Assembly (NCBI GenBank): GCA_963755715.1
Contig: CAVWLW010000042.1
Coordinates: 1-44,013 of the forward strand
Source: an uncultured delta proteobacterium
Lineage (GTDB): Bacteria > Desulfobacterota > Binatia > UBA9968
Length of the DNA stretch: 44,013 nt
Reading direction: 5' to 3'
Part shown: positions 34,378-41,384 of the stretch, piece by piece
Position numbering within the stretch: the stretch's first letter is position 1
How the letters are laid out: each line of letters begins with the position of its first letter
Translations under genes and position numbers: made by a program
The notes under the pieces: generated by a model
Database searches by the model: none
What the model was told of the DNA's origin: nothing
The model's input: only the letters and a program-made list of their open reading frames with translations

Positions 34378-34383
34378 TGACGT

Positions 34384-34617
34384 TCATGTGAAGTTGCACT
34401 CACTTTTAACTCGATGAAATTCCTTCTCTGGCACACCAAACTTTCGTAGGACCAATCGCAACTTCTTGCTCCAACGTTCGGCAGTTTCGTGTTGGGCTTT
34501 GTGGCTCAGGATCAAACAAATATAAGCGCAGACAGTCTTGGAGTGGCCATTGTCCAGCCGTTTAGGGAAGTGCTCGGTCCAGCTGCTCTCTATATCTGCG
34601 TCCTTGATCGGCTTCAT
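34384..34617 (-). CDS. Small hypothetical protein (WxxH[YF]PKR family, copy 3)
   Basis: WTEHFPKRLDNGHSKTVC; WSKKL and VPEKEF match WSDKL and IPKEQF of copy 2. Confidence 0.8.
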   Translation of the reverse strand: MKPIKDADIESSWTEHFPKRLDNGHSKTVCAYICLILSHKAQHETAERWSKKLRLVLRKFGVPEKEFHRVKSECNFT

Positions 34618-34927
34618 GGTAAATCCCCGATAATTGAGAAGTGCTTACGTACCCGCGACCCTGCTTATCGCCGACCTCGAAATGCCCGAGTGGAGATCGA
34701 TCGTGCGGCACGCCGTAAAAACAACCCGCGCAGAGAAAGTGTCAGAGCATGTGTGTCGACTAATTTGCCTCTGATGGATACCGAGTGTTCCAAGCAGATA
34801 GCTTTAAAGCGGCTGTTTCTCATATTCACTTGCCAACAACTCATAATGGGCTAATTTATTCGGGCCGTAAGATTGAACTGAATTCTCCATCTACTAAATC
34901 CTGTGAGATTCGTCTGAAGCGTCGTTG

Positions 34928-36877
34928 ATCGACATAGGTAGGCTCTCGCGAGCTGTCCCTGTCACACCACCGGGCATACGGGTCACGTACCACGGCGGTT
35001 CGATCGGGTTAAGCATTTGAAGCGCCGGCTAATCTCGGAAGGCCGATCGAGTCGAAATAGCGATTGCGCAGTGCTTGTTGAACCGCCGGATGGCCTGACA
35101 TACGCCAGAGTCCCGTCGGTGAACCGGCGGCGACCGCAGCATTAAACTTCGGTACGCCGCGTCGATGCAGTTCTTTAAAACGGTTGTGTCCGTTCAGCCA
35201 CTGCCGCCAGAGGTACATCCGTAGTCTCCGGCGAATCCACGCATCCAGAGTCGACAGCACTTTAGGAGTTTGGCAAAAGCCAAAGTAGCCGCGCCAGCCA
35301 ATCAGATATCGAGCCAGGGGCTCGACCAGCGTGACCAGACTTACTCCAGACGTCCGACGTGTCAGTTCCCGTACCCGTAGCTTGAACCGTTGAACCGCCT
35401 TCGGCGCAATTTGCCGTTGGCGCCCATCGTTCGTGATACTAAAGCCCAGGAACTTTCGCTCCTCTGGTCGAGCCACAGCGCTCTTTGACTCGTTGACTTT
35501 CAGCCGAAGCCTAGTCGTCAGAAATCGGCTCACGCTGGCCATGACCCGCTCGCCCGCCCGCCGACTGCATACGTACACGTTACAGTCATCTGCGTAACGA
35601 CAGAATCGATGACCGCGGCGTTCCAGTTCCTTATCGAGTTCATCAAGCACCAGGTTACTTAACAGAGGAGAAACAGGACCCCCTTGCGGTGTCCCTTCAT
35701 CGATCGGACGGACCAACCCGTCTTCCATCACTCCAGCGTTTAAAAACGCTCGGATGATCTTGAGCACTCGCTTATCAGCCACCCGCTCCGCCACCCTTGC
35801 CATCAGCCTGTCATGGTTGACTCGATCGAAGAATTTCTCCAGGTCAATATCAACCACCCAGTTGTAGCCCTCAGCGATGTACGCTTGAGCTTGGGCTACC
35901 GCCTGATGCGCTGAGCGACCCGGGCGGAATCCATAGCTGTGCTCGGAAAACGTTGGGTCCCAACCTCTCTGCAGAACCTGAAGCAACGCTTGCTGAATCA
36001 GTCTATCGACGATGCAAGGAACGCCGAGCTTTCTGATCCCACCATCCGGCTTAGGAATTTCCACCCGCTTGACCGGTTGTGGCTTGTAAGTTCCGCTTAG
36101 CAGCTGTTCCCGAATCTCTAGCCAGTGCTCCCGCAGATAGAAAACGGCCTGCTCGATGGTCATCCCATCGACCCCCGCACTACCTTTGTTCTCCCGGACA
36201 CGCTTCCACGCTATTTCAAGATTTTCTCGTTGGCACACCTCCTCCATTAACCGTTCTTCCATTGCCAGGCTTTCAGAGTTTCGCTTCGCCACATGCGCTT
36301 CGGTCCCTTTGCGGACAAGGTTAGGGGTTTCACCCCAACCTCCTTCCGTGAAGGCCAGATGCAATTGCTTGCTCCGGATTTTCTGCCGCTTTGCGCTCAT
36401 GAGTTGCGAGTCCTACTTGCCACTCCCAATCGTTCAGGCCTTCAGCAAGTCGTTACCGGTCCGGCGAGCCCTGCCGTTTCTCCCCTTTCGGGCGAGTGTC
36501 CCAATCGAGTGGACCGACTGCCCTTGCCTACTTTGCCCTCTGCTGACTTCTGCGCCGCGGTCGGGTTGCCTCACGGCTTCCTCAGTTCCAATTTGGAACA
36601 CAGCGCAGATCTCCCGAGGTAAGCCCGACAGCTTTCACCGCACACCTGCCGGATCTACATCTCTGGCCCTTAATGGATATGGACTTCGCGACTAGTCGCA
36701 CGCTCGTCCGACCCGAGATGCCTGATATCCGGTTTCTGTTCGTCAGGTCGCGGCTTTGCTCCACGCTTCCTTCAGACGCCACCTCACGATGACGCCCTTG
36801 CGCTTTGCTAATCCTTCACCTCCATCAGGTTGGATAGGGGACTCTCACCCCTAAGCTGTCAAACATGCTCGGCACAC
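34928..36877 (-). mobile_element. Group II intron, class IIC
   Basis: 5' GTGTGCCGAGCATG...GGGGTGAGAGTCCCC; DV GAACCGCCGTGGTACGTGACCCGTATGCCCGGTGGTGT with CGC triad; ends ...CCTATGTCGAT; hairpin in 5' exon. Confidence 0.92.
35009..36400 (-). CDS. ltrA: Group II intron reverse transcriptase/maturase, no endonuclease domain
   Basis: NKGSAGVDG, RKLGVPCIVDRLIQQA, GTPQGG, RYADD, FLGF, domain X GWRGYF. Confidence 0.97.
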   Translation of the reverse strand: MSAKRQKIRSKQLHLAFTEGGWGETPNLVRKGTEAHVAKRNSESLAMEERLMEEVCQRENLEIAWKRVRENKGSAGVDGMTIEQAVFYLREHWLEIREQLLSGTYKPQPVKRVEIPKPDGGIRKLGVPCIVDRLIQQALLQVLQRGWDPTFSEHSYGFRPGRSAHQAVAQAQAYIAEGYNWVVDIDLEKFFDRVNHDRLMARVAERVADKRVLKIIRAFLNAGVMEDGLVRPIDEGTPQGGPVSPLLSNLVLDELDKELERRGHRFCRYADDCNVYVCSRRAGERVMASVSRFLTTRLRLKVNESKSAVARPEERKFLGFSITNDGRQRQIAPKAVQRFKLRVRELTRRTSGVSLVTLVEPLARYLIGWRGYFGFCQTPKVLSTLDAWIRRRLRMYLWRQWLNGHNRFKELHRRGVPKFNAAVAAGSPTGLWRMSGHPAVQQALRNRYFDSIGLPRLAGASNA

Positions 36878-37022
36878 GACTAAACCGCTTCGCGGTAGGC
36901 CGGAGGGCCGGAGTCCTGCGATTAGCGATCTTGCTGCTTTAATTTCGCAGTTATCATTTCTCTGACGTTGTGCCTGGGTGCAGTGATAGCCTCAGTGAAA
37001 ATTTTCACTCAAGGAGGCTGTC

Positions 37023-37869
37023 ATGGGAGCATTACGGGACCGAATGATCGAGGAGATGAAGCTGCGGAACTTTTCTGCTGCAACGCAAAAGACTTACCTC
37101 TACGCGGTGACGCGGCTGGCGAAATATTATGGCAAAGCGCCGGATCAGCTCAGTAAGGAAGATATCCGAGCGTTTCTTGTACATCTGCTGGTGGAGCGGA
37201 AGTTATCGCCCAATGGTCTGACCGGCTACTGTTCGGGGCTGCGCTTTTTCTATAACGAAACCCTAGGGTGGGACGAGAACAAGCTGTTCATTCCACCGCG
37301 GAGGAAATCTTCACCTGCTGGCTGAAGTGTTCAGTCCCGAGGAGGTCGTGCGCCTTATCCGCGCCGCCCGAGGTCTCAAGCAGCGTGTTTTATTGATGAG
37401 CGCCTATTCGGCAGGGCTCCGAGTCAGCGAGTTAGTCAATCTCAAGATCACCGACATCGATCCAGCACGCATGACGCTTCGTGTCAGGCAAGGTAAAGGC
37501 GGCAAAGACCGTTATGCCATTTTGTCGCAGAACCTGCTGGTGGAACTGCGTGTATATTGGAAACGCTACCGACCTGTGGTCTGGCTTTTCCCCAACCGAG
37601 CCAAGACCGGCCCCTTGAGTCGAGGAGAAGCTTGGCACATCTTCAACTCGGCGAAGAGAAGAGCGGGGCTTAAAAAAGGCCGTGGCATACACAGCCTACG
37701 GGCGTGCTTTGCCACCCATCTGTTGGAAGCCGGTGTAGACTTGCGCTCGATCCAGTTCTTAATGGGGCACACCTCGCTTCTATCCACCCAGCGCTACTTA
37801 AGGCTACGACCACAGAATGTTGACCGAGCCCTAAGTCCGCTCGACAGGCTGCCGTTAACGACGCTCTAA
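37023..37869 (+). CDS. Tyrosine recombinase with N-terminal SAM-like domain (frameshift ~37318)
   Basis: MKLRNFSAATQKTY; SAGLRVSE, GKGGKDR, HSLR, LMGH, TQRY catalytic residues. Confidence 0.92.
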
Positions 37870-37872
37870 GCC

Positions 37873-39068
37873 GTGGGCGGCGGCTCTGAGCAGCCGGCAG
37901 CGACAAAGGGCGGCGGCGTTGAACTGGCCGATATCTTTCGCGCCTATGGCGAGTCCTATCGCCGCAACCATCGGTTGCCGGTTTCCCATCTCAAAGTCAT
38001 CGAGGCCGTGGAGCGCTGTCGCACTGCGGCTCTCGGTGGGCATCTCCAACAGTGTGACTCCTGTGGCTTTGAGCGGCCGGCCTACAACTCCTGCCGCAAT
38101 CGGCACTGCCCTAAATGCCAATCTTTGGCCAAGGTAAAATGGCTCGACAAACAAAAATCAGAACTGTTGCCGAGCGGATATTTTCATCTAGTTTTTACCT
38201 TGCCCCACGAGCTCAACCCCCTGATCCTCATCAATAAGAAAGCCCTGATCCATATTTTGTTTCAATCGGTCTGGCAGACCTTAGCCCAATTTGCTCAGCG
38301 TCGTTTGGGCGGGATACTGGGGATCACTGCGGTTCTGCACACCTGGGATCAGACCCTGTTGGATCATTTTCATCTGCATTGTCTGGTTCCCGCCGGCGCT
38401 CTGTCTTTTGATCGAAACCGCTGGGTCTCAGCCCGTCAAGACTTTCTCTTCCCGGTTAAAGCCCTGAGCCTGGTCTTCCGCGCTAAGTTCCTCGACTCGC
38501 TCAAAAAGAGCTTCGATCAGAACAAGTTGCTCTTGCTCGGACACATCGCACACTTAGCCGATGCTCAAAGCTTTAACGTGTTGCTGAAAGGATTGCGAAA
38601 AAAACCGTGGGTCGTCTATGCCAAAAAACCGTTCGGCTCTGCCGCCCATGTGCTGGACTACCTCGGTCGTTACACCCACCGCGTGGCGCTCTCCAATGAT
38701 CGGATTGTTTCCAGCTCTAACGGAGAAGTCACCTTCGCTTACCGCGATCGAAAAAACCAAGATCGGCGCAAACTGATGACGCTCGATGCCCAGGAGTTCA
38801 TCCGCCGCTTTTTACTCCACGTCATCCCCAAAGGTTTCATGCGGGTGCGTCACTACGGCTTTTTAGCCAACCACTGCAAAGATGCTCTGTCGAAGTGTCG
38901 TCAACTCATAGGCCTCACGCCCGCACCGCCTCCATCTCCCCAACGCTCATCGAGGAGTTGATGCTGGCCTTGACCGGCATCGATATCCATCGCTGCCCGC
39001 TTTGCCAGAACGGAACTCTGGTGTGGGTTTGCGAACTGGCAGTGTCCCTGCCGTGGGATTCTTCGTGA
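37873..39068 (+). CDS. IS91-family (HUH Y2) transposase with Zn-binding domain (frameshift ~38948)
   Basis: CRTAALGG, SCRNRHCPKC, HTW...HLH, YLGRY, RVRHYG; shifted tail TGIDIHRCPLCQNG...WDSS*. Confidence 0.93.
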
Positions 39069-39323
39069 GAACGGATCTCATCAATCAATGCGACGGTCTT
39101 TCCCCTGCTCTCTGCCAGAGCCAACGCAGAGCTGTGTCTGGTGGTATCATTTTGCCATGCTTTTAGCCCATGCTCACGTGGTATTTGTGCTGTCTGGATC
39201 TTGCCGAAACCAATTTCTCGTAATGCGCCCCGATCCTCCGCGATCCCCCGCAAAATGGTAGCTCGCCGCGATGTTGCCGTTCCAATCCCCATAGGCAACG
39301 CTTCTGCCTCTCCCAACGCTTTA

Positions 39324-39414
39324 GTCCAACGGGTTTTAACCCGAATGCGTCCAATCCAACTGTTCTCACCGATCGTTCTGCCCTCGCATTCGGGTTAAAA
39401 CCTATCCGTTGGAC
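39324..39414 (+). other. attC-like terminal hairpin of the IS91-like element
   Basis: GTCCAAC (RYYYAAC) ... GTTGGAC (GTTRRRY) with perfect inner stem GGTTTTAACCCGAATGCG/CGCATTCGGGTTAAAACC. Confidence 0.7.
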
Positions 39415-39425
39415 GTTTCGTGCTG

Positions 39426-39541
39426 GTATATTGAATATACGAGACCAGGTATATTGGATATACCGGCGACATGAACAAATTGACAACCCTTTGATTTCAG
39501 GGGTAAGTTGCGCATTGATTATTGGTGGATACCCAATATAC
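39426..39541 (+). promoter_or_regulatory. Promoter TTGACA-18-TAAGTT flanked by three 15-bp palindromic motifs
   Basis: GTATATTGAATATAC 39426, GTATATTGGATATAC 39449, reverse-strand GTATATTGGGTATCC 39527; TTGACA at 39480. Confidence 0.55.
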
Positions 39542-39591
39542 GAGATCTGTTCACTCAATAGTTCGGCTTCAAACCAAGGGTCTTCATACAA

Positions 39592-40365
39592 ATGAGCGGA
39601 AAAAACTGGCGCGAGTGGTTCCTTGGCGTAGTAACAGTGGGGGGAATCGCTACGACATTTTGGTTGTCGCCGCTCCCCCAAGATCCGACCTATCATGAGT
39701 TCGCGGACCGCAGAACATTCTTCGGAACCCCAAACTTCTGGAACGTGTTCTCCAATCTCCCGTTCGTGCTTGTCGGAGCTTTTGGACTGCGCACGCTATC
39801 GCGGCTGCCACCATCCTCGCCCCGCTCTGCATACGTCGTGTTCTGTATCGGGGTGGTTTTGGTCGGCTTCGGTTCGGCTTATTATCACTATTCTCCCTCA
39901 ACGCCGGCGCTGGTTTGGGATCGGGTACCTATGACGATTGCCTTCATGGCGCTCTTCTCGATGGTTGTCCGCGACCGCCTGTCGGAACAAGGCGGCAGTG
40001 TCATGCTGTGGCCGTTGGTCCTGGCGGGAGTGGCCTCGGTCGGGTACTGGTACTGGTCCGAGACCCAAGGGCAAGGAGACCTCAGGGCGTACGGGGTTAT
40101 ACAGTTTCTGCCGATGCTCCTGATAGCGTTGATGCTCATAATCTGTAGCGGCAAAGGCCTGAGCGCTCCATGGCTGTGGGGTTCATTGGGGACCTACGCC
40201 TTGGCCAAAGTGGCGGAGCACTTCGACAAAGCCATTTACAACGTGACAGGTATCGTGAGTGGACACAGCATCAAGCACGTCTTAGGGGCTCTTGCGGTTC
40301 TCTGGGCTGTCTTTGCGGCTCTAGGGTTTAGCCGACGACAAAGCCGAACAACCCAGTGGAGCTGA
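39592..40365 (+). CDS. Ceramidase-like (CREST superfamily) membrane protein
   Basis: YHEFADRR, NVFSNLPF, GSAYYH, WDRVPM, SGHSIKH; about 7 TM. Confidence 0.85.
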   Translation: MSGKNWREWFLGVVTVGGIATTFWLSPLPQDPTYHEFADRRTFFGTPNFWNVFSNLPFVLVGAFGLRTLSRLPPSSPRSAYVVFCIGVVLVGFGSAYYHYSPSTPALVWDRVPMTIAFMALFSMVVRDRLSEQGGSVMLWPLVLAGVASVGYWYWSETQGQGDLRAYGVIQFLPMLLIALMLIICSGKGLSAPWLWGSLGTYALAKVAEHFDKAIYNVTGIVSGHSIKHVLGALAVLWAVFAALGFSRRQSRTTQWS

Positions 40366-40415
40366 CTGGGAAAAAGCTGGCGTTTTTTCCCAGCAACTCA
40401 CCGGGAGCGTTAGGC
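40343..40415 (+). other. Integron attC site
   Basis: GCCGAAC ... imperfect palindrome GTGGAGCTGACTGGGAAAAA/TTTTTCCCAGCAACTCAC with extrahelical bases ... GTTAGGC; 73 bp at the gene's 3' end. Confidence 0.8.
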
Positions 40416-40468: not shown

Positions 40469-40651
40469 ATGCCCGAGGCGCGGGTGGCCTATCAAAAAGC
40501 ATTGAGTATGAGCCAACAAGAGCCGGAAAAAAGATTTTTAAAAAAAGATTGGCCGCAGATTGACCGTGGAAAGTCGGCCGAGCCAATGCCCTTCGACTGC
40601 GAGCGCATCGTTTACTCCGGCTTCGGGCGGCTCATCACGATGGAGAAGTGA
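40469..40651 (+). pseudogene. Chimeric remnant: ECF sigma-factor C-terminal TPR tail fused to DUF1428-like C-terminus
   Basis: EARVAYQKALSMSQQEPEKRFL followed by MPFDCERIVYSGF. Confidence 0.55.
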
Positions 40652-40652
40652 C

Positions 40653-41138
40653 ATGGTGAAGCCAGCAAAGAACACGATTTGCCTTTGGTACGATGGCGAC
40701 GCCGAGGACGCGGCGCGGTTTTACGCCAAGACCTTTCCCGATTCATCCGTCGGCGCGGTGCACCGCGCACCGGGAGACTTTCCGTCCGGGAAGAAAGGGG
40801 ATGTGTTGACGGTCGAGTTTACCGTGATGGGAATTCCCTGCCTCGGGCTCAATGGCGGACCCGCGTTCAAGCACAACGAAGCATTCTCGTTTCAGGTCGC
40901 AACCGCTGACCAGGCCGAAACGGATCGTTACTGGAACGCGATCGTCGGCAACGGCGGCGAAGAGAGTGCGTGCGGCTGGTGCAAGGACAAATGGGGATTG
41001 TCCTGGCAGATTACGCCGATCGCTCTGACGAAAGCGATCACCGATCCCGATCCCGCTGCCGCCAAGCGCGCGTTCGATGCGATGATGCAGATGAAAAAGA
41101 TCGACATCGCTGCAATCGAGGCGGCGCGCCGCGGTTGA
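40653..41138 (+). CDS. VOC family protein (PhnB / 3-demethylubiquinone-9 methyltransferase-like)
   Basis: CLWYD, LNGGP, CGWCKDKWGLSWQI, MKKIDIA. Confidence 0.93.
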   Translation: MVKPAKNTICLWYDGDAEDAARFYAKTFPDSSVGAVHRAPGDFPSGKKGDVLTVEFTVMGIPCLGLNGGPAFKHNEAFSFQVATADQAETDRYWNAIVGNGGEESACGWCKDKWGLSWQITPIALTKAITDPDPAAAKRAFDAMMQMKKIDIAAIEAARRG

Positions 41139-41324
41139 GGTTGCAATCTTCGAAGCGGTGCGTCCGCGGAAGCGCAAGGGGAACATGACGGGCGAATCTT
41201 CACAGGACTCCCGCCATAGCGTGCGTGACCAGATGCAGGGTCATGCCGAGCTCGGGATGAGGACGTTTGCTCCTGTGAGGCCGGATTGACGGCTGTTCGC
41301 GGCGACCAGCCAAGGCCGCCTGGT

Positions 41325-41384
41325 TCAGTTGCCCGAACCAGCCACCGTCAGTTCCACGCGCCGGTTCTTCGCCCGGCCGTCCTG
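41325..41384 (-). pseudogene. OmpA-like domain C-terminal remnant
   Basis: QDGRAKNRRVELTVAGSGN* with no upstream body. Confidence 0.6.

Follow-up and report, generated by a model that had tools for sequence, protein, structure and literature searches.

The window, i.e., the whole 44,013-nucleotide stretch of DNA analysed here (contig CAVWLW010000042.1 of GenBank assembly GCA_963755715.1, from an uncultured delta proteobacterium of the Binatia, UBA9968), harbors between positions 36878 and 39410 one copy of a 2,533-bp insertion sequence (IS) of the IS91 family, with a gene designated int ahead of the transposase gene, tnpA. The subgroup to which it belongs is hallmarked by the gene of an IntI/XerA-like tyrosine recombinase (int) located directly 5' of that of a Y2-HUH rolling-circle transposase (tnpA). 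Taken as a whole, the evidence makes us fairly confident that this is an IS91-type int and tnpA element with IS91 ends, targeting the GTT of attC-like hairpin stems. An earlier interpretation, made from the letters of this DNA without database searches (hereafter the sequence-only reading), envisaged a self-mobilizing cassette able to gather genes, whose single-stranded circle is made by the HUH enzyme and integrated by the recombinase at attC-like GTT cores. The element comprises the following features:

36878-36900, plus strand: left (terIS-like) tip GACTAAACC and subterminal palindrome ACCGCTTCGCGGT (36884-36896), placed by conservation in 19 relatives
37023-37869, plus strand: int, IntI/XerA-like tyrosine recombinase, in two frames (37023-37325 and 37327-37869)
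37873-39068, plus strand: tnpA, IS91-family Y2-HUH transposase, in two frames (37873-38961 and 38895-39068)
39318-39410, plus strand: right (oriIS-like) end, consisting of TTTAGTCCAAC, a stem, a CTAT bulge, and CCGTT, with the end point taken from 12 other copies

Genes of the Element

The pair of a tyrosine recombinase and an HUH (IS91) transposase, recognized already by the sequence-only reading, is borne out by Pfam domains: Phage_int_SAM_4 at 37023-37325 (5.6e-21) and Phage_integrase at 37327-37869 (2.6e-35), followed at 37873-38961 by Zn_Tnp_IS91 (PF14319, 1.9e-32) and Y2_Tnp (PF04986, 4.9e-62). The model NF033538 (IS91 family transposase) matched another copy from the same genome, L002, with 423.4 bits at a cut-off of 125 (loci, genomes, and contigs are referred to by L, G, and C numbers). 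The translation of tnpA shows HFHLHC and YLGRYTHR, which we take to be the transposase motifs.

Each gene of the window copy is split between two frames. The extra base near 37317 in int is absent from all 12 aligned relatives, and the base missing from tnpA at 38948/9 is present in all six relatives spanning the site; judging by these alignments, both indels are changes private to the window copy, not a conserved programmed shift, and may represent decay or assembly error. Given that both genes are frameshifted, the window copy is probably inactive (unless the shifts are assembly errors). Contigs from four soil runs lying over 37286-37538 differ by ~3% plus one gap, so those at the first indel site derive from other copies or strains; the second indel site was ambiguous in these runs. 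Intact single open reading frames (ORFs) are found in L008, L010, L011, L012, and L013, with 278-299 amino acids for int and ~396 for tnpA.

The sequence-only reading had noticed no obvious IntI-specific insertion in the recombinase, and profile searches agree: the IntI model TIGR02249 scored 168.2 bits (cut-off 265), matching over profile positions 4-181 and 246-315 and leaving the IntI-specific segment, ~182-245, unmatched, and NF011946 scored 121 bits (cut-off 435). True IntI proteins of the relatives reached 466-470 bits. The best model for the recombinase was “XerA/integron integrase” with 184 bits. The residues R133, K158/K161, H223, R226, H249, and Y258, each presumably catalytic, are invariant across 12 aligned recombinases. 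In a quick maximum-likelihood tree of 84 proteins, whose rows were picked by likeness to the query and whose only support values come from the Shimodaira–Hasegawa-like approximate likelihood-ratio test (SH-aLRT), the IS-linked recombinases group together (SH-aLRT 88) in a clade of 46 IS-linked rows and three without a visible tnpA. Together with true IntI and XerA-like proteins, this clade falls within a larger one supported at 100%, apart from XerC/XerD; its nearest neighbors are XerA-like, not IntI. In a collection of species genomes, at least 602 matching stretches were detected, and an IS91 transposase follows int directly in 40 of the best 80 loci, which come from many phyla.

Conserved in the leader of int (36985-37025; also present in L003, L173, and L174) is a nested palindrome, AGCCTC-AGTGAAAATTTTCACT-CAAGGAGGCT, predicted to pair the Shine–Dalgarno GGAGG just 5' of the ATG. 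It may serve translational control of the recombinase or be a protein-binding site.

Limits of the Element

The ends were mapped on three copies from the window's own genome and about 25 copies from its order, where a search gave matches in 61 of 123 genomes and about 25 usable copies. Besides the window copy, the own genome contains L002, truncated on its left side and matching 37962-39410 with 97% identity, and L003 (78% identity), in which int is intact and tnpA frameshifted. In the window, L002, and L003 alike, the element is co-oriented with the neighboring genes.

On the left, all 19 relatives share the tip GACTAAACC (at 36878 in the window) and, behind it, the palindrome ACCGCTTCGCGGT, and TTG stands immediately 5' of the tip in 17 of them; xTTG is present in the window as well, set apart from the tip by an intron. 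The left limit proposed by the sequence-only reading, GTTGTGC at 36967, turned out to be internal: the stretch 36878-37030 aligns without interruption in five relatives free of the intron described below, and the sequence of L003 differs at the supposed limit. On the right, all copies end in ...AAAACCTATCCGTT, i.e., at 39410 in the window. Past this point (...CCGTT or a variant) the window diverges from all 12 other copies, and therefore the next four bases, GGAC (39411-39414), are flanking DNA private to the window copy and lie outside the element. An irregular right end was encountered in L071 (a Candidatus Binatia record), where its last ~24 nt (GGGATAAAACGCTATACGTT) are tandemly duplicated before the flank.

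The core measures 2,497-2,557 bp in 15 of 16 relatives. The ability to gather genes, suggested by the sequence-only reading, found no counterpart here: no captured genes were seen, none of the 16 relatives having a core longer than 2,557 bp.

Insertion Sites and the T Repeat

The 57 bp at 34871-34927 of the window have their homologue immediately left of GACTAAACC in L003, L013, L014, and L015; the GTTG at 34924-34927 adjoins the left tip in relatives lacking the intron. After the right end, 10 of 12 close relatives continue with CA(G/A)TTCAATCCT (GTT/CAGTTC, the slash marking the junction). This sequence repeats, in inverted form, the beginning of the left piece, and the two arms together make up a palindromic unit of ~70 bp, T, represented in the window by its first part:

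34868-34927, plus strand: first (5') part of the attC-like palindromic repeat T (AAGATTGAACTG AATTCTCC...GAAGCGTCGTTG), located by nhmmer and homology

In nhmmer, a profile made from 11 solo copies of T matched 34868-34926 with an E value of 1.6e-11. Solo T repeats are abundant: the own genome has 11 forward pattern matches against none in the reversed-pattern control, and G081 has 44 against one. According to nhmmer, they form same-orientation clusters on C54 (7), C61 (7), and C35 (5); the Pfam-supported genes between T copies are co-oriented, and canonical-looking hairpins of the GCCTAAC...GTTAGGC type are scattered among the copies. Seven of the 11 T copies fold into a structure with an outer stem of 13-15 bp, unpaired spacers, and a variable inner stem. 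On these grounds, T is read as a putative lineage-specific attC-like recombination site.

Within T, the insertion point is between ...GCGTCGTT and CAGTTC... in the window, L003, L013, L014, and L015, and in the mirror-image arm, between ...GGAGAATT and CAGTTC..., in L008 and L009. L010 and L016 are inserted in 30-bp minimal forms of T, for which an empty homologue exists at G081:C5:20292. In the second subfamily (L017-L031), the right-end triplet is followed immediately by RRRY in 7 of 10 copies, expected by chance in 1 of 16; this flank corresponds to the R box of canonical attC sites. When the loci from genomes flagged as unpublished, L016 (G055), L030 (G052), and L034 (G074), are left aside, the counts become 10/11 and 6/9, and no conclusion rests on these three. 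The target statistics are confined to the window's own order, since the motif-based ends could be mapped in few of 40 distant loci.

Thus, two expectations of the sequence-only reading are confirmed by the aligned flanks: the copies break at GTT, and the flanks are strongly enriched in attC-like hairpins (the T arm in 10/12 relatives, GTT/RRRY in 7/10 copies of the second subfamily). As far as the mapped junctions tell, they show that the family inserts at GTT in the stem of apparent hairpin recombination sites, namely T and, in the sister subfamily, canonical attC R boxes. The IS91 family is characterized by the absence of a target-site duplication. Here, GTT is present on both sides of the element and the empty-site homologue has a single GTT, which is compatible either with one element-borne and one target copy or with a 3-bp duplication.

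The same junctions invite another interpretation, in which the halves of T are the outer inverted repeats of the element itself and the solo T copies are internally deleted miniature inverted-repeat transposable elements (MITEs), not recombination sites. In keeping with it, the T arms form 12-13-bp inverted repeats around the core in 10 of 12 relatives, and taking the core and one GTT out of a filled site yields a solo T. However, the solo copies far exceed the element copies in number (44 pattern matches in G081) and occur in same-orientation arrays between co-oriented genes; the core resides in either arm (L008 and L009 versus L003, L013, L014, L015, and the window) as well as in 30-bp minimal T; the sister subfamily is flanked by canonical GTT/RRRY in place of T; and the head-to-tail joint described below contains no T sequence. 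We therefore consider this interpretation highly improbable.

The minimal forms of T are of two kinds, represented at C59:26403-26432 in the own genome and at G081:C5:22621, C43:360055, and others. They consist of the outer arms joined by the left or the right unpaired spacer alone, as if the inner part had been precisely excised.

The own genome also carries, at C45:103861-105087, a true integron-integrase gene possessing the IntI-specific segment; a frameshift and the insertion of a GIY-YIG-type ORF disrupt it. At a distance of 660 bp 3' of this broken intI (C45, 105749-105838), there is a canonical hairpin, GCCTAAC...GTTAGGC.

The Right-End Hairpin and the Head-to-Tail Joint

The sequence-only reading ended the element in a 91-bp hairpin, GTCCAAC...GTTGGAC, at 39324-39414. 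As a structure, this hairpin stands (-27.8 kcal/mol, z = -8.39, none of 200 shuffles being as stable); as the end of the element it does not, for its last four bases are the flanking GGAC. The stem of the right end proper is 17 bp long (39332-39349 paired with 39385-39402), and the element terminates at the GTT at 39408-39410. By eye, the layout comprises a one-sided 4-nt bulge and a 5' arm without a spacer. The core stem is conserved in 17 sequences, with compensatory changes at two pairs (in 7/17 and 4/17). At the gathering and E-value thresholds, Rfam offered no family for the hairpin or for the downstream module M (see below); the single match was a chance one to a microRNA precursor, with 22 bits at a gathering score of 89. 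The bases of the hairpin's 5' foot were considered as a guide for the junction triplet and rejected, since they do not vary together with it: L012, L017, and L018 keep AAC.

The resemblance to attC could mean that the element is merely a passive integron cassette, the right-end hairpin being used as attC by a host IntI and the IS91 genes being cargo. The stretch 39324-39414 is, indeed, one of only eight hairpins in the 7.4-Mb genome passing a strict RYYYAAC...GTTRRRY test, the element is located among cassette-like units, and, for ISCR28, attC sites at or just after the end and passive shuffling have been raised in a paper on sul4 (PMC12772301). Ends of this kind occur both in the window copy and in the joint form. 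Against a passive cassette, 10 of 12 integrated relatives have GTTCAGT or a similar R'-like 3' box, not GTTRRRY, and an outer stem of only 5 bp. Moreover, the own genome's intI is broken, the left tip, palindrome, and CTAT motif are conserved in the fashion of transposon ends, and the element is found in both T arms. A passive cassette is, hence, very unlikely.

The sequence TTTAGTCC, just 5' of the hairpin, is complementary to the left tip GGACTAAA, so a right-to-left joint is predicted to lengthen the stem. The complementarity holds in the T subfamily and L017, with one mismatch in L026 and L027. The sequence-only reading had proposed to look for circular junctions. Each of two unrelated metagenome contigs contains the exact 22-mer of the right-end-to-left-tip joint: in L173, the final 145 nt of the element are followed by the left tip, the leader, and the beginning of int; in L174, a contig of 3,439 nt, the end of tnpA and the hairpin are followed by the left tip. 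Both joints fold into an attC-like hairpin with a 13-bp outer stem and the ends GTCCAAC and GTTGGAC (z -7.1 to -9.6). A precise right-end-to-left-tip joint, therefore, exists in nature.

End Rules and a Possible Mechanism

For the IS91 family, PMC13181058 gives the target tetranucleotide beside oriIS as CTTG, GTTC, or GTCC, places at terIS a cleavage tetranucleotide beside a subterminal palindrome (GTTC in IS801 and IS1294), and describes single- and double-stranded circles carrying the ori–ter joint. The present element has GTTG with a subterminal palindrome on the left, and on the right a hairpin with the CTAT motif followed by a GTTC-type tetranucleotide; among 13 copies, the latter is GTTC in seven, ATTC in three, and GTAC, GTTG (the window), and TTAC in one each. 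Ends following the IS91 ori/ter tetranucleotide rules were named by the sequence-only reading as an outcome speaking against it, and this is the outcome obtained. Since the same rule predicts GTT too, GTT at both ends does not single out an integron-type mechanism.

By analogy with IS91, the transposition could proceed as follows. TnpA would nick the right end and peel off or copy one strand; the two ends of the element would then be joined into a circle, as reported for IS91, and the joint of the circle would fold into an attC-like hairpin. Insertion would take place into single-stranded, folded attC-like sites, and the recombinase might help to choose or resolve the insertion step, or perform it.

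One version of the last step is the full model of the sequence-only reading, in which TnpA only provides the single-stranded circle, and its integration is brought about by the IntI-like recombinase through strand exchange at G/TT between the joint hairpin and the attC-like target. Several findings are consistent with it: the recombinase is closer to IntI than to XerC/D and its catalytic-type residues are all invariant in the 12 aligned proteins; the ends of the joint hairpin are GTCCAAC and GTTGGAC; insertions are at the GTT of attC-like stems, in either T arm; the junction triplets GTA/GTA and ATT/ATT would fit a shared crossover core; and the int and tnpA pair is conserved across many phyla. 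Still, all the end features are also accounted for by the IS91 rule. The recombinase is devoid of the IntI-specific domain, which serves IntI in handling folded attC, and the hairpin has no attC spacer and L-box layout. The co-variation of the triplets fails in four of eight informative copies, and the literature search found no experiment on any IS91 member with Int. On balance, we regard this model as rather unlikely. A bolder extension, doubtful in our estimate, would have integron logic copied in the absence of an integron: the element's own IntI-like recombinase would recombine the joint hairpin of the TnpA circle with GTT in other folded attC-like sites, and the T arrays, remote from any intI, would be built or reshuffled by such recombinases. 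Overall, the sequence-only reading has partial support: the attC-like targeting stands, and integration driven by the recombinase is hypothetical.

The preferred reading, an IS91-type element with IS91 ends that targets GTT in attC-like stems, has its own weak points. The term “attC-like”, for T and the end hairpin, denotes our own sequence and fold criteria, not the attC covariance model, and the hairpin departs from attC in having no L-box and paired-spacer layout. In principle, T could be a repeat resembling MITEs or repetitive extragenic palindromes (REPs), and in G076 and G083 the T arrays are not beside an intact intI. The triplet before the left tip matches that at the right end in L012 (GTA/GTA), L008 and L009 (ATT/ATT), and L017 (ATT/ATT), and differs from it in L010, L021, L022, and L071; such co-variation is outside the predictions of a plain IS91 model, and the agreement would be explained by a crossover core shared between the junctions, by duplication of 3 bp, or by both sites being read out in common. 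As to the joint, L173 is 2,661 nt long, about one unit plus 127 nt, which would fit a circular assembly path, a tandem copy being equally possible. The joint was not found in 90 genomes of the family with up to three mismatches, nor by regular-expression search in the 174 loci and the own genome, nor in viral contigs. It was also not seen in the contigs of four soil runs, which, being contigs only, give no evidence of absence.

Flanks of the Window Copy

The surroundings of the window copy depart from those of its relatives on both sides and comprise, apart from the T part listed above, the following features:

34928-36877, minus strand: group IIC-type intron with a reverse transcriptase/maturase ORF at 35009-36400 (Pfam RVT_1 and GIIM)
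39411-39570, plus strand: spacer GGACGTTTCG and the ~145-nt module M, ending in ...GTTCACTCAATAGTT before CGGC; flank, outside the element
39592-40365: ceramidase-family ORF (Pfam)
40343-40413, plus strand: canonical-looking attC-like hairpin GCCGAAC...GTTAGGC (-18.5 / -20.6 kcal/mol)

The intron (1,950 bp; TIGR04416, 427.8 bits; Rfam group-II-D1D4-3, 141 bits) is inserted at the exact boundary of GTTG and GACTAAACC, antisense to the genes of the element, its boundaries being set by comparison with uninterrupted relatives. One soil-metagenome contig joins 34909 to 36878 via GTGATTGAAGCGTCGTTG without the intron, weak evidence from a single contig with a side of 28. The target hairpin of the intron is the ter palindrome of the element, on the bottom strand. 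The intron starts with GTGTG and ends with ...GAT, lying 6 nt after the ter palindrome on that strand.

Downstream, the sequence-only reading placed an attC cassette immediately after the element. A non-coding repeat module of ~150 nt comes first; beyond it come the ceramidase-family ORF and the attC-like hairpin at 40343-40413, and the claim is borne out in part. This hairpin at the end of the ORF shows a cassette-array-like context of the element. Module M (39418-39567) is a dispersed non-coding repeat, matched 16 times across 10 further genomes of the family (73-85% identity), containing three GTATAT-type palindromes and ending in CACTCAAT(A/G)GTT. It sits 25-30 nt after a T arm in four of eight aligned copies and in L013, and directly after the intI stop codon in three of the eight; the left flank of the second subfamily, abutting the left tip, ends in its terminal motif. 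M may function as a target site or as a regulatory module, or else represent a miniature element. Copies are located at the right flank of L013 and in L153 and L158-L164. A sigma-70 promoter suspected in M from a TTGACA motif was dropped, no promoter-like sites being predicted in 36850-39620.

The second T arm was not found downstream in the window. In L013, the order is element, T arm, spacer, M; in the window, it is element, spacer, M. Since L013 keeps the arm, and the window's GGAC aligns with the spacer ahead of M in L163, a deletion of ~25-30 bp, starting exactly at the end of the element, has removed the T arm together with part of the spacer. By chance, this deletion completes GTCCAAC...GTTGGAC in the window copy. 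GGAC was also considered as a remnant of the joint, and this was rejected on account of the same alignment with the L163 spacer before M.

Farther downstream, a hairpin GGATTGACGG...CCGTCAGTTCC at 41283-41360 follows an ORF of the 3-demethylubiquinone-9 3-methyltransferase family (40560-41138); its ends resemble T arms, and the cassette-like array may continue there. Upstream of T, a stretch of ~235 bp at 34383-34617, with a minus-strand ORF of 77 amino acids lacking a Pfam match, is repeated in the own genome at C74:124750 (93% identity) and C9:11703 (89%), and the short stretches 34664-34727 and 34772-34825 recur in G081, G057, and G080.

Significance

The attC-homing mobile elements described so far are only the IS1111-attC elements and the group IIC-attC introns. 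If the preferred reading is true, an attC-homing IS91-type element would be the third kind, with an integrase-like gene and joined ends that imitate attC. It would offer a testable role for the extra recombinase of this IS91 subgroup and would connect rolling-circle transposition, a source of single strands, with integron recombination, whose substrates are folded single strands. In many phyla of soil and water, cassette arrays could be broken, moved, or rewired by such elements. What the window copy contributes is a lineage-specific family of attC-like targets in which either arm is used and a group IIC intron directed in its turn at the end hairpin of the element; the copy also led to the natural head-to-tail joints in metagenome contigs.

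Comparison with Known Systems

Among the IS91 subgroup members in ISfinder, some carry an extra integrase ORF. The int and IS91 tnpA pair is also annotated by the Prokaryotic Genome Annotation Pipeline (PGAP) on Sinorhizobium and Bradyrhizobium plasmids. A description of an IS91 element with Int that targets or mimics attC-like sites was not found in the literature (subscription journals and ISfinder/TnPedia texts were outside the search), and the attC-like targeting and attC-like joint of this subgroup appear not to be in print.

The IS91 family (IS91, IS801, IS1294, IS1294b, and the ISCR relatives) likewise has a Y2-HUH transposase with an N-terminal zinc-binding domain. The ori-end tetranucleotide, the ter-end tetranucleotide with its palindrome, and the ori–ter joints are common to both (PMC13181058). 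The present element differs in that it strongly prefers the GTT of attC-like hairpins, forms a joint folding into such a hairpin, and has a conserved IntI/XerA-like recombinase; the literature search gave no printed description of any of these three traits. For ISCR28, the accessible part of the sul4 paper mentions attC sites at or just after the element, with the data not shown there, raises cassette-like passive shuffling, mentions no recombinase gene, and sets the context in clinical and wastewater class 1 integrons (PMC12772301).

Integron cassettes and IntI resemble the present system in the crossover-like GTT junction, the RYYYAAC/GTTRRRY ends of the joint form, and the recombinase clade. 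Unlike IntI, the recombinase is under the model cut-off and lacks the IntI-specific segment, and, unlike an integron cassette, the unit consists of two genes and transposon ends.

The IS1111-attC group (ISPa21, ISPst6) and the group IIC-attC introns home to a fixed place in integron attC, inserting antisense near its 5' end, as stated in PMC3001079. The former use a DEDD transposase and the latter a ribozyme with a reverse transcriptase. The intron in the window resembles the group IIC-attC introns of that account in lying on the strand opposite to the neighboring genes. The element here, in contrast to both groups as they are portrayed there, is co-oriented with the genes (window, L002, and L003) and resides in either T arm.

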